Below, in pieces: positions 12,001-27,000 of a stretch of DNA of 64,000 bases. Every line of letters begins with the position of its first letter. Position 1 is the first letter of the stretch. The position numbers are program-made. Location of the stretch: assembly GCF_055900595.2 (NCBI RefSeq), contig NZ_CM148325.1; one strand, 5' to 3'.

Positions 12001-15000
12001 GGGCTGGATGGTCGAAATGCCGAAGGCTTCGATGTATGTCTGGGCGAAAATCCCGGAACCATATGCGGCCATGGGCTCACTGGAATTTGCCAAGAAACTG
12101 CTTAACGAAGCGAAGGTCTGTGTCTCTCCAGGGATTGGCTTTGGCGACTACGGCGACACCCATGTTCGCTTTGCGCTGATTGAAAACCGCGATCGTATTC
12201 GCCAGGCGATTCGTGGAATTAAAGCGATGTTCCGTGCCGACGGTTTACTACCCGCCAGCAGCAAACATATTCACGAAAACGCGGAATAAACACCATCGCC
12301 AGAAATGCAAACAGGAGCCAGATGGCTCCTGTTTTTCATTGCACAGTTTGCTTTTAGATCATCAGGGCAAAAGTACCGGCCCAAACGATGACCATAAAAG
12401 AAATGCCCATAAAGAAATATTTCACTTTACATCTCTCCGCGTAATTACTGTTACGCCTGAATGACTTCATTACACCTGATACAGTGAGTTGACACCGGGC
12501 AAAACGACATTGAAAGTCCGTATTTTACCGTGGGCATCACCCCAGAATTCTGAGCTAAACTGCTCCAGACGGCGCTAATGTACGCCTAAAACTGAAACGA
12601 GACAAGAGGCATTTTCTTATTTACTTTTAGTAACTTACAGGTGTCTCATATCGGCGACAGTTTAATTTCTGACGGTAATAATTAGAGATTCAGCGAAGGA
12701 AAAAACCTTAAGAAAAAAGCCATAAAAACCATGAGGTTATTATGGCTGATTTGAGGAGGGAAAGAGTAAGAGCAATTTGTTAAATGTATAACGACGATTC
12801 TCCCACCGGGCGCGTTTTAAAGCGACGGTGGATCCAGAGGTACTGCTCAGGTGCGCGCATAATCTCTTTCTCGATAATCTTGTTCATATAGGCAGCGGCT
12901 TGATTTTCATCTGCCGGGTAGCCTTCCATTTCAGGGGTGATGAACAACCGATATCCGCTGTAATCCGCTTTTCTGACCATCGTTACGGTCAACATGGCTG
13001 CGCCAGAGAGACGAGAGAGGACATAGGTGCCATTGGTTGTGGCAACATTTTCTACCGCAAAGAACGGTGCGAAGGAGCTGCCTTTACGACCATAATCCTG
13101 ATCGGGAGCAAACCATACGGCTTCACCTTTCTTCAGCGCACCGACAATACCGCGCAGATTATTTCTGCCGATCATCGCTTTGTTAGAGCGCATGCGACCA
13201 CGGGTCTGCACCCATTCCATCAGCTGATTATTATGCGGACGATAGGTGGCCATCATTGGCTGACATAGTCCCATCACGCGGCCGCCCAATTCCAGCGACA
13301 TAAAATGGACGCCGACAACCATCACGCCACGATTTTGCAGTTGTGCGCGTTTGAGGTTATCCAGCCCTTCAACATCAAACCATTTACGTACGCGACTGTC
13401 GGGCCAGAACCATGCCATGCCGGTTTCTACCAGCGCCATGCCGAGTGAACGAAAGTTTTCGGCAATCATCTTCTCGCGCTCTTCAGCAGAATGCTGTGGG
13501 AAACAAAGTTCCAGGTTCTTACGGGCGATAGATTCACGACGTTTCAGGAATGGTCGCGCCATCGTGCCGATACGCGTGCCGAGAAAACAGAGAACAGGGT
13601 AAGGAAGCTGTACCCAAAGCCAGAGTACACCAAGCCCAAACCATGTGAGCCAGTAGCGAGGATGTAGAAACTCGCGGGAAAATTTGCATTTTGGAAACAT
13701 AGTTACCTTCTGTAGATACGAATTGTTGTATCGCAGAAGATTCCATGTCGACAGCGGTACACTCAATTGGTTGGGCCATCATGTACGACAATGGTTCCTG
13801 TAAAGAGTGTAAAGACTAGTCAGGACATAACCACGAGGAGCATGAATGCGGTGCTTTTACTTTATCACTGGCTGACTGCTTTCAGCTACTGATTATTTAT
13901 CGTGCAAAGTAAATATTTTTTTCGCACATTACAGTCTTGCATTTAACGTGCTGTTTTCATTAATACTTAGCAAAAATTGCCAGAGGTTAAGGATTGTCTT
14001 ACTATTAAAGTGACTGAAGTTACAGGTTTTTTAGCGCGGCAGGAGGTTGAGCTATGATTTATTTATGGATGTTTCTCGCCCTGTGTATTGTCTGCGTAAG
14101 CGGATACATCGGTCAGGTACTGAACGTGGTCTCGGCGGTCTCTTCTTTCTTCGGCATGGTGATCCTCGCTGCACTCATTTACTACTTCACCATGTGGTTA
14201 ACTGGCGGTAATGAACTAGTGACGGGGATATTTATGTTTCTTGCCCCGGCTTGTGGCTTGATGATTCGCTTTATGGTGGGGTATGGCAGGCGGTAGTAGT
14301 TCAGGATGGATCATTTGGGCAGGTGCTCACATCATCAACAGATATGATTGTTCACCTGCCATGTGACAGACGCTATCGCACAGGATGAATAAGATAATTC
14401 GCCTTTGTCGGAAAAGGGGGCGTGATGTCTTCTGTGAGATTTAATGGTGGCGCATCTTCTCTCATCTTAAACAAAATCGCCTGTGATGGTTGAAGTTTTG
14501 TAGAATGAGTTGTCGTCATCACTGACGTTTTTTCTGTCCCTTTATAGCTCGTCTCACTTCCACCACCAGAAATGGAAAATGCAAAAACATTGCATGCCAT
14601 AATAGAGACCAATAAAAATAAGCTAAAAAGCATTAAGTTTACTTTCATAGAAAGTTATCCTGAGAATGGCTCACTGAGAACCTACGATGTTATGGCTGTA
14701 TTTACATTTAATTAATCAGTATTTACATCGATATAATAAATGACATCTCTTTGTGGTATATAAGAATAGTTCTCTGCGACAGGAAGCATATTCCTACAAT
14801 TGTAAGACTAAATACTTCTTGCGATAATAACTACAACTGTAAGATAACCCTTTCAAAATGACCGTTGCTCTCTGATTTCTCATTTCATGCTCACCCAATA
14901 TGATGGCGGCGTTTTCTAAAACTGTTAAAGAATGAGGTAAGTATGAAACGTTTAATTATGGCTACGATGGTCACAGCAGTTCTGGCATCTTCAACTGTAT

Positions 15001-24000: not shown

Positions 24001-27000
24001 GAGCCATTTTCATCAGTCATAGAATAGGGAGGGGAGTAAGGATTTTCCAGCACCTTTAAATCGGGATGTTGCTTAATCCACTGTTTTTCATGTTCAGTGA
24101 GTTCTAATGGTTTGTTCAGAAAGGCCAGGTTTCCTGTATCAAGCCAATTTTGTGATACTTCATAGCGAACTTCATTTGTTAAAGCATCAACAAACCGATT
24201 GAGTACTTCATTAAGAATGACGGATTCTTTTCTGGTCAAGAAAAAATTATATTGACGCGGCGAGTTATAATATTTCACTACATTTAAGGAGTGAGTGAAA
24301 TAGCGGGAAATCATACTGCTGGTAATGATGTTACTACCAATAAAGTAATCATTATGTCCGGTAGAAACGGATGCTAATGCCTGATATAAATTTGTAAAAG
24401 AGATAATTGTTGCTTTTGGAAATGATTGATGAATTACCTTGTCTGGGGGGTAATTTGCTACCCGAGCAATATTTACTGGTTTTGGTGAGGTAAGCGGTCG
24501 CATTGAGTCGTGAAGGGTGGTTACCAGCGCCGGAAAGGTAATTATCAATGGTTTGGTTGCAGCAATGTCATTATTAAGAGGCGGCGAAGTAACTAAATGT
24601 GATAACACTATATCGACTTCACCTTCTGCAAGCGCGTCCATTGCTTTTTGATGATCTGCGTATTCCCGGAGTGTTAATTTGATATTTAACGCTCTTTTTA
24701 AAAGATTTAAATAATCAGCATTAATACCACGAACCCGTTGCTGCGAATCGGTATGCAACAACGTAGCCGTTTGGGACTTGTGTACTGCAATCACAAGATT
24801 TTTTTTGCTCGCTAACCAACGTAATTCCTTGTTGCTCAGACGTAGTGGATCAAGCGTGACACGGTTGTTACTACTGATGCCACGATATTCGATGTAATCT
24901 TCGTCTGCGAAACTTATGGTCGACCAAAGACCACAACAGAGAAGAAAAAAATAGGGTAAAAACTTCATGTGATTAGCCGATTTTGTTACGTTGCGCGAAT
25001 GTGTAAAGATCCATCAGTGATTTACATTCTAATTTTTCCATCAGGCGACTTTTATACGTGCTGACAGTTTTGTTGCTGATGAACATTTTTTCCGCAATGT
25101 CATTATTGTCCTTGCCATCAAGAATATACCTCATGACACTAATTTCTTGTTTCGATAAGGAGTCGAGTTTTTGCTGGTCGGACGTTAAACTTCCAACAAA
25201 CCGGTTGAGAGAGAAAGGGAAATAGCAGTAGCCATTTTTTGCAGCTTCAATAGCCGCAATGATATTGTTCATGCCTTCTTTTTTACTCACGAATCCATTA
25301 GCGCCTGCATCAGCACAATGTTTCCCGTAAAAATGGTCATTTTTAGCGGAGACGATAATAATAATTCCGCTATATTGGCGCTTCCTCAGCGTTTCTAACA
25401 CCTGGATACCGTTAACTCCGGGGATATCGACATCAATGATGACGATATCAGGTTTAAGTGTTTCCACCCGCTGAACGGCACTTCCCCCTTCAGTCAACTC
25501 CGCTAAGATTTCAATATCGTTTTTGATCAATAAATTACGAATTGCTGCGATAGCAAGAGGATGGTCATCAATAATTATTGCGTTCATAGATTATTCCCTT
25601 TGCAATGAAGCATCTCCCTTCTCCCTGTAGTAATACAGACATAAGGCATCATCTCATTTTCTCAATCAAAATAAGAAAATTTGAGCTTCCTTTAAGATAA
25701 TTCAACAAGTATACCATATAAATAGTCGGCATAAATGAAATGTCAACAATAAAATCAGGGATAATACCGCTAACTTATAGTTTCAAATGAGTACTATAAG
25801 GCTTCTTATTAATCCTACAGGCGTAAGAATTGTATTGCAAAAGTCACGGTTTAGTCCTCTGTTGTATCTTCTGCAACTCCTTTAAATTAGGCCTCCAACG
25901 TTCCTGGGATAATGTGTAACACATGCACTGTGTTTGATATGAAGAATGAATACTCTTTTCATTCAATTCATAAATTTCATCTATGCGAAATGAGAGATAA
26001 TAGTGGAACAGATTAATTCAAATAAAAAACATTCTGACAGAAGAAAATATTTTGCTTTATTAGCAGTGGTTTTATTTATTGCGTTTTCAGGAGCCTATGC
26101 CTATTGGTCACTGGAATTAGAAGACATGATTAGTACAGATGACGCCTATGTTACGGGGAATGCTGATCCAATTTCTGCACAAGTCTCAGGCAGTGTCACT
26201 GTCGTTAATCATAAAGATACGAACTTTGTTCGACAGGGTGACATTTTAGTTTCACTGGATAAAACTGATGCTACGATTGCACTCAATAAAGCTAAAAATA
26301 ATCTGGCAAATATTGTGCGACAAACGAATAAACTATACTTACAGGATAAACAATACAGTGCCGAAGTCGCTTCAGCACGTATCCAGTATCAACAATCTTT
26401 AGAAGATTATAATCGTCGTGTGCCGCTAGCAAAGCAGGGGGTTATTTCAAAAGAAACGCTGGAGCACACCAAAGATACGTTAATAAGTAGCAAAGCGGCA
26501 TTGAATGCAGCTATTCAGGCTTATAAAGCGAACAAAGCCTTAGTAATGAACACACCATTAAATCGCCAGCCACAAGTTGTTGAAGCTGCGGATGCAACCA
26601 AAGAAGCCTGGTTGGCGCTTAAACGTACGGATATTAAGAGTCCGGTTACCGGTTATATTGCCCAGAGAAGTGTTCAGGTCGGCGAAACAGTGAGTCCTGG
26701 ACAATCGTTAATGGCTGTCGTACCGGCACGTCAAATGTGGGTTAATGCCAACTTTAAAGAAACACAACTCACGGATGTACGGATTGGTCAATCGGTTAAT
26801 ATAATCAGCGATCTTTATGGTGAAAATGTTGTGTTTCATGGTCAGGTGACAGGGATCAATATGGGAACCGGCAATGCGTTCTCCTTATTACCTGCACAAA
26901 ATGCGACAGGGAACTGGATCAAAATCGTTCAGCGTGTACCGGTTGAGGTGTCTCTGGATCCAAAAGAACTCATGGAACATCCCTTGCGCATTGGTTTATC

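Follow-up and report, generated by a model that had tools for sequence, protein, structure and literature searches.

Acid and drug resistance in Escherichia coli depend in part on the response regulator EvgA and its hybrid sensor kinase EvgS, and a chromosome segment that carries both their genes and those of their reported targets raises a simple question: are the sites through which EvgA would act present, and is the circuit around them the same as in K-12? We asked this of a stretch of 64,000 nucleotides from NCBI RefSeq assembly GCF_055900595.2, contig NZ_CM148325.1 (hereafter the window). An earlier reading made from the sequence alone (the sequence-only reading) had noticed three 18-bp inverted repeats in front of the genes yfdX, frc and emrK and had taken them to confirm that the regulatory wiring is intact. 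We find four such dyads, which are very probably EvgA boxes of the EvgS/EvgA regulon, bound by an EvgA dimer and activating yfdX, the frc-oxc-yfdV-yfdE operon and emrKY. This identification is based on their identity to K-12, on their top ranks in an independent weight-matrix scan and on their location in the promoters of reported direct targets.

Four dyads in the window fit the EvgA consensus with 0 to 3 mismatches

We searched the whole window for the EvgA dyad TTCYTACANNTGTARGAA, that is TTCYTACA-N2-TGTARGAA, allowing for up to 3 mismatches. The search returned four dyads in total, each a predicted EvgA box:

14791-14808, no strand assigned: yfdX distal EvgA box, TTCCTACAATTGTAAGAC, 1 mismatch to the consensus
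14828-14845, no strand assigned: yfdX proximal EvgA-like box, TAACTACAACTGTAAGAT, 3 mismatches
15820-15837, no strand assigned: frc (yfdW) EvgA box, TTCTTACAGTTGTAAGAA, 0 mismatches
25812-25829, no strand assigned: EvgA box in the emrK/evgA intergenic region, ATCCTACAGGCGTAAGAA, 2 mismatches

Two of the three sites of the sequence-only reading (14791-14808 and 25812-25829) were placed exactly, and the third, given as 15819-15836, was one base off. All three had been described as fitting the consensus, which holds fully for the frc box and with the mismatches listed above for the yfdX distal and emrK boxes; the fourth and weaker copy at 14828-14845 had been overlooked. The gene context bears out the claim that the sites lie in promoter regions of EvgA regulon genes. 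The ATG of yfdX is 135 and 98 bp downstream of its two boxes and that of frc is 252 bp downstream of its box, and the shared emrK/evgA box precedes the emrK start by 174 bp and the ATG of the divergent evgA by 225 bp.

Palindromes may arise by chance in AT-rich intergenic DNA and have no regulatory role at all. We therefore compared the cumulative number of dyads seen at 0, up to 1, up to 2 and up to 3 mismatches (1, 2, 3 and 4, respectively) with the numbers expected per 64 kb from the base composition of the window (8e-5, 0.0035, 0.073 and 0.93). In 2000 simulations of the window with a first-order Markov model, three or more matches at up to 2 mismatches never arose. Chance would be enough for the proximal yfdX box taken alone, since one 3-mismatch dyad is within expectation also in shuffled sequences (mean of 0.88 matches per window). 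The other three boxes are far beyond expectation, and they are also all located in EvgA-regulated promoters, ranked at the top by the independent matrix and, as described below, invariant islands in their surroundings. We regard a chance origin of the set as extremely improbable.

An independent weight matrix retrieves the same boxes

The same dyad occurs upstream of three EvgA targets of K-12 from outside the window:

safA dyad (K-12, gene orientation): TGCCTACAGCTGTAAGAA
ydeP dyad (K-12): AGCCTACACCTGTAAGAA
yegR dyad (K-12): TTCCTACTTATGTAGGAA

We built a symmetrised weight matrix from these three sites alone, with no window site in the training set and with gadE, whose promoter is reportedly bound directly by EvgA, left out. 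Among the 63,983 positions of the window, the matrix ranked the frc box first, the emrK box second, the yfdX distal box third and the yfdX proximal box fifth. The scan with an EvgA matrix that the sequence-only reading had proposed as a check, here run non-circularly, thus recovers all four boxes within the first five positions. The fourth rank is taken by TGCTTACACCAGTAAGGC (27079-27096), inside emrK. We rejected this site as an EvgA box and consider it probably a chance match, as it lies in coding sequence and its TACA is a single-nucleotide polymorphism seen only in the window, with TATA in the five other genomes compared.

The boxes are invariant islands in polymorphic intergenic DNA

Alignment of the three intergenic regions, together with a motif scan of K-12 MG1655, showed that all four boxes are base-for-base identical to those of K-12 and occupy the same intergenic positions. 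At yfdX we compared six genomes, namely K-12, UTI89, O157:H7 86-24, SCU-101, Z503 and L006, the last being a divergent Escherichia whose EvgS is 90% identical. The four boxes are kept in UTI89, O157:H7 86-24, SCU-101 and the divergent L006; in Z503 the boxes of yfdX and frc are retained and the emrK region is deleted. Conservation was thus sampled across phylogroups A, B2 and E, plus L006.

Where the boxes vary, they do so mostly at their centre. The yfdX distal box changes only in the spacer (AT or AC) in UTI89, O157, SCU-101, Z503 and L006. The proximal box is present in each of the six comparison genomes; its spacer is AC or GT, and one change occurs at outer position 2. The frc box has GT or GC as spacer, L006 differing in the spacer alone, and the emrK box of AREA_499 shows a spacer-only change (GG or TG). 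In L006 the emrK box carries two substitutions, A1 to T and C11 to T, which turn it into the perfect consensus TTCCTACAGGTGTAAGAA. Half-site cores that stay fixed while the two central bases drift are the signature expected of a protein-binding dyad, and this pattern, read from the alignments, shows purifying selection. Constraint on the half-sites with a free 2-bp spacer, one of the marks of an EvgA box, was found here.

The same contrast is detectable on a larger scale. A 100%-identical stretch spans the frc box in 5,403 out of 5,426 complete E. coli genomes (99.6%) and the emrK box in 4,888 of them. The DNA that directly precedes the frc box varies greatly between genomes, and the 101 nt around the emrK box of the window share only about 89% identity with most genomes. 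The boxes are invariant islands within polymorphic intergenic DNA. The region of the frc box, with its conservation and the substitutions confined to spacer and outer positions of the boxes, neatly illustrates how purifying selection acts on the site of a transcription factor.

To extend the comparison beyond E. coli, we scanned species-representative genomes with EvgS. Among the matches listed, one was a true orthologous evgS locus (L006, a divergent Escherichia); the others were generic hybrid kinases of at most 52% identity, plus a 551-bp contaminant contig. Because only this one true ortholog locus was listed, the cross-species footprinting comprises one divergent lineage and the sampled E. 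coli genomes. The 551-bp contig belongs to a Terrisporobacter petrolearius assembly, encodes a 96%-identical EvgS and is almost certainly E. coli contamination.

Three of the compared loci carry rearrangements or lesions close to the boxes. Z503 (locus 12534-13320) has an IS1 element a short way past the EvgA box of frc, joined to a piece of emrY, and has lost frc-oxc-yfdV-yfdE-evgS-evgA-emrK. In E. coli O103:H2 strain 129, the emrK box is followed after about 33 nt by an IS3-family insertion (locus about 233-383) that splits the conserved TCCTCTGT element, described below, from the -10-like element, which presumably would uncouple emrKY from EvgA. In O157:H7 86-24 (locus 6884-8025), yfdE is annotated as frameshifted and the EvgA boxes are intact.

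Inverted repeats may also be conserved because they fold, as terminators, attenuators or processing signals in RNA, or as DNA hairpins. The perfect palindrome at frc does fold, forming a 7-bp hairpin of -6 kcal/mol (z = -3.1), but the three other boxes do not (-0.8, 0 and -1.3 kcal/mol; z near 0). No T-run follows any of the four boxes, all of which lie upstream of the presumed start sites, and the actual terminator of yfdX is a separate element at 15630-15666. No Rfam family was found in 14000-27000, and none of the four dyads was among the terminator-like sites returned by scans of the box regions. With three of the four dyads lacking a fold and no Rfam match, we rejected the reading of the dyads as intrinsic terminators or structured RNAs, and a role as hairpins in general appears barely conceivable.

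EvgA is the best candidate for the protein that binds the boxes

The 18-bp inverted-repeat consensus was reportedly described by Masuda and Church (2002/2003), and EvgA binding is reported to have been shown for emrK (Kato et al. 2000) and for further promoters (Itou et al. 2009). Inverted repeats in front of both yfdX and yfdWUVE are bound by EvgA (PMC3720670), which also attaches directly to the emrKY promoter (PMC8350985, PMC9496106, PMC5706723; the first two credit Kato et al. 2000) as well as to the safA-ydeO promoter (PMC9496106). PemrK and PyfdX have served as reporters that are activated directly by phosphorylated EvgA (PMC5706723), and an EvgA binding site is present in all genes known as directly regulated (PMC4283999). 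Given these published targets and the identity to K-12, the sequence-only reading was right to consider the sites known biology.

The regulator itself is intact in the window. EvgA (204 amino acids) is 100% identical to that of K-12, UTI89, O157 and SCU-101, has a Response_reg receiver and a GerE/LuxR helix-turn-helix with the DNA-binding domain intact, and matches the solved EvgA structures 5F64, 8ZWN and 3F6C. NarL and RcsB are its nearest solved relatives, NarL being the nearest other than EvgA itself. This closeness raises the possibility that another GerE/LuxR regulator (for instance RcsB, GadE, NarL/NarP or UhpA), or H-NS in view of the AT-rich promoters, is the main binder, with EvgA acting indirectly. 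Several GerE-type helix-turn-helix proteins of E. coli bind short inverted repeats. However, the EvgA half-site is unlike the NarL heptamer TACYYMT and unlike the GAD box. Moreover, the motif is specific to the reported direct EvgA targets yfdX, frc, emrK, safA, ydeP and yegR (PMC4283999, PMC5706723), and direct binding of EvgA itself is reported in reviews for two of the promoters concerned, those of emrKY and safA-ydeO (PMC9496106). We consider another main binder very unlikely.

EvgA thus remains the preferred candidate, and the marks of an EvgA box that sequence can show were found: fit to the dyad, promoter location, K-12 identity, retrieval by an independent matrix, drift of the spacer and an intact cognate regulator. 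In the mechanism that we envisage, stimulated EvgS would phosphorylate EvgA, a regulator of the NarL/FixJ type with a C-terminal GerE/LuxR helix-turn-helix, as the literature describes. By analogy with the family (as in the NarL 7-2-7 sites), an EvgA dimer would then bind each inverted repeat with one helix-turn-helix per 8-bp half-site, leaving the 2-bp spacer free, and the bound protein would activate the downstream sigma-70 promoter. The targets switched on would be yfdX through two boxes, frc-oxc-yfdV-yfdE through one, and emrKY through one in the divergent evgA-emrK intergenic region.

Some observations weigh against this reading or narrow it. By its match alone, the box at 14828-14845 is at chance level, and its support comes from its position 37 bp from the first box, its location in the 294-bp promoter region and its conservation. 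The gadE promoter contains no dyad at up to 3 mismatches, the sole match in that locus being inside mdtE; the strict dyad is hence not the only route by which EvgA finds its targets. Agreement with the mapped footprints at the level of single bases is indirect, through K-12 identity and secondary citations. The start sites and the box-to-promoter distances used below are ones that we infer, with the promoter scan at background, and binding and induction in the strain of the window are predictions from sequence.

EvgS and the yfdX spacer differ from K-12

The claim that the regulatory wiring is intact holds for the cis sites and for EvgA, but needs to be qualified for two other components, the sensor EvgS and the spacer between the two yfdX boxes:

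14809-14827, no strand assigned: yfdX inter-box spacer, with an A-run 1 bp shorter

As a result, the starts of the two yfdX boxes are 37 bp apart in the window and 38 bp apart in all six comparison genomes. The exact 75-nt allele was found in 9 records across the 5,426 complete genomes, and is apparently that of the window strain's own clone. The window also shares 100% identity across 20 kb with strain E200086 and a few related isolates.

EvgS is full length with no stops, and differs from K-12 at 31 out of 1197 residues (97.41% identity). The differences are scattered across the protein (for example I7F, N342R, P480E, G856V and Q1173K), and the allele is no nearer to those of UTI89, SCU-101 or O157. 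Natural EvgS polymorphism can abolish the response to pH while EvgA and the promoters are unchanged (PMC5706723). The pH-blind alleles are 96-97% identical to K-12 and come from the tested B2 strains other than E2348/69 (PMC5706723), and pH insensitivity was not assignable to any single domain of EvgS (PMC5706723). In the same study, low pH gave an induction of 8- to 60-fold in all tested non-B2 strains, including EDL933, whose EvgS is 97.83% identical to K-12 (PMC5706723).

It follows that the boxes may be genuine and the circuit nonetheless altered in this strain, either through an acid-blind EvgS allele or through a change in yfdX induction caused by the 1-bp deletion. The 31 substitutions in EvgS, set beside pH-blind alleles of 96-97% identity, and the rarity of the 37-bp spacing are both compatible with such a change. 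On the other hand, EDL933 was responsive at a similar EvgS distance, as was every other tested non-B2 strain, and a change of 1 bp in a 19-bp linker may be tolerated. As pH insensitivity has no assigned domain, it is not predictable from sequence, and sequence cannot class the EvgS of the window as pH-responsive or unresponsive. On balance we hold an altered circuit to be possible, though unlikely. Intact boxes do not prove that the circuit fires. Among natural E. coli, it is the input kinase EvgS that varies.

EvgA boxes are followed by a conserved element and a presumed promoter

To describe what lies downstream of the boxes, we aligned on the box the six promoter-proximal sites (yfdX proximal, frc, emrK, safA, ydeP and yegR) and scored the conservation of the downstream columns in 8-column windows. 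The top-conserved one spans positions +26 to +33 past the box and contains a TCYKATTT element, the copies of which are TCTGATTT, TCTGATTA, TCCTCTGT, TCCTATTT, TCTTATTT and TCCTATTC in yfdX, frc, emrK, safA, ydeP and yegR, respectively. None of 5000 random rotations equalled this conservation. As the ydeP promoter is evidently paralogous to that of safA, we repeated the analysis without it, and the result was unchanged with five promoters. In the sequence display, C and A at +9 and +10 past the box are also invariant in all six promoters. Within the window, the elements are the following:

14871-14878, plus strand: TCYKATTT-type element of yfdX, TCTGATTT, 26-33 nt past the proximal box, conserved in L006
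15863-15870, plus strand: TCYKATTT-type element of frc, TCTGATTA, 26-33 nt past the box, one base different in L006 (TCCGATTA)
25855-25862, plus strand: TCYKATTT-type element of emrK, TCCTCTGT, 26-33 nt past the box, conserved in 8 E. coli, TCTTCTGT in L006

Further on, at about +52 to +59 past the box, there are hexamers that look like a -10 element:

14899-14904, plus strand: -10-like TATGAT of the presumed yfdX promoter (TTCTCA-16-TATGAT, consensus match only), conserved in L006
15889-15894, plus strand: -10-like CATATT of the presumed frc promoter, proposed from register and conservation (AATATTTATCATATTCTTC conserved, the 7 nt before it variable)
25883-25888, plus strand: -10-like TAAATT of the presumed emrK promoter (TTTAAATTA conserved)

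A consensus promoter scan of the box regions did not rise above the shuffled background, and we used it only as a hint for the -10 of yfdX. The stretches between the TCYKATTT element and the -10-like hexamer vary in sequence and keep their length in alignments that include the divergent lineage, with the exception of EH53. At emrK, for instance, the 20-nt stretch before TTTAAATTA is polymorphic in sequence; eight aligned genomes still contain it, seven of them with the same length and EH53 with one extra T.

With start sites predicted near 14911, 15901 and 25895, the proximal boxes would be centred near -74 and the TCYKATTT element would fall close to the -35 position. At its core this element has TCYTA, which is also the core of the EvgA half-site, placed 42 bp (four helical turns) further downstream, and it may either serve EvgA as a weak secondary half-site or belong to the promoter itself. 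Going one step further, EvgA promoters might share a fixed geometry composed of the dyad, CA at +9/+10 and TCYKATTT, with a secondary half-site near -35 and an assembly of several dimers as in BvgA. We put this forward tentatively and consider it rather doubtful. If it were true, the 1-bp deletion at yfdX would put the distal dimer into a different helical phase and tune how this clone induces yfdX. The TCYKATTT element is the only mildly new observation of the analysis, and may already be published.

We rejected the shared emrK/evgA box as an evgA autoregulatory site of the same geometry, as no TCYKATTT element is present in the evgA direction. The box may still serve in both directions. A perfect -35 hexamer, TTGACA at 25741-25746 on the minus strand, faces evgA 65 bp from the shared box and is kept in the divergent lineage. 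We take it as a candidate for the basal promoter of evgA, with a geometry unlike that of the EvgA-activated promoters.

Gene context of the boxes

In the window, the gene order is ypdI (minus), yfdX (plus), frc-oxc-yfdV-yfdE (plus), evgS-evgA (minus), emrK-emrY (plus) and dsdA (minus), followed by the csc sucrose genes. The features around the boxes are the following:

14943-15575, plus strand: yfdX coding sequence (annotation)
15630-15666, plus strand: terminator-like hairpin with a T-rich tail, 3' of yfdX, between yfdX and the frc promoter
16089-21319, plus strand: frc-oxc-yfdV-yfdE operon, oxalate and acid tolerance (annotation; PMC3720670)
21375-24968, minus strand: evgS, hybrid sensor kinase, 1197 amino acids, intact
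24973-25587, minus strand: evgA, response regulator (Response_reg and GerE/LuxR helix-turn-helix), 204 amino acids
25584-25613, minus strand: evgL leader open reading frame, 9 codons (MLHCKGNNL), 5' of evgA, identical to K-12 b4781
26003-28704, plus strand: emrK-emrY efflux pump operon

The hairpin that follows yfdX fits the picture drawn in the literature, in which yfdX and frc-oxc-yfdV-yfdE have separate EvgA-dependent promoters.

The long leader of frc, strongly conserved around this point, contains a mini open reading frame of 15 codons at 15920-15967 (MQKGIGSGDEMIFRT, then a stop). It is open in K-12, UTI89 and O157 (15 codons) and in L006 (17 codons), with mostly conservative changes; it has no annotation in K-12 and no obvious Shine-Dalgarno sequence.

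At the other end of the region, the csc sucrose-utilisation genes (a LacI-family regulator, cscA, a kinase and a transporter; about 30143-35503) adjoin dsdA. Only a remnant of dsdX is left and dsdC is missing, the same arrangement as in O157:H7 86-24. An intact dsdX stands at this place in K-12 and UTI89, and the UTI89 locus also shows dsdC.

Comparison with known systems

The closest known system is the set of EvgA boxes of K-12 MG1655, with which the window shares four identical boxes at the same positions, a 100% identical EvgA and the same downstream promoter elements. The window differs in having one base fewer between the yfdX boxes (37 instead of 38 bp), 31 changed residues in EvgS and lineage-specific polymorphisms that flank the emrK and frc boxes. 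As cis elements and regulator are the same, what is known in K-12 of EvgA-controlled genes would be transferable to this strain. The finding is already known biology and of small import beyond annotation.

The BvgA sites of Bordetella, in the fha, ptx and bvg promoters, offer a more distant parallel, in which a homologous dimer of the NarL/FixJ type acts on inverted T/C-rich repeats. The BvgA half-site TTTCCTA resembles the TTCYTA contained in the EvgA half-site, and the primary high-affinity dyad of BvgA is located a good distance upstream of its promoters. In the window, the TCYTA-like element 42 bp past the EvgA half-site would fit a secondary site of the BvgA style. The organism and the regulon are different, however, and a cooperative binding of several dimers would be hypothetical for EvgA. 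EvgA/EvgS were named after BvgA/BvgS (PMC9496106).

Finally, the 7-2-7 sites of NarL and NarP are bound by proteins of the same family and are likewise composed of two inverted half-sites 2 bp apart. They differ from the EvgA boxes in half-site sequence (TACYYMT against TTCYTACA of EvgA), in the nitrate signal and in the regulon that they serve.

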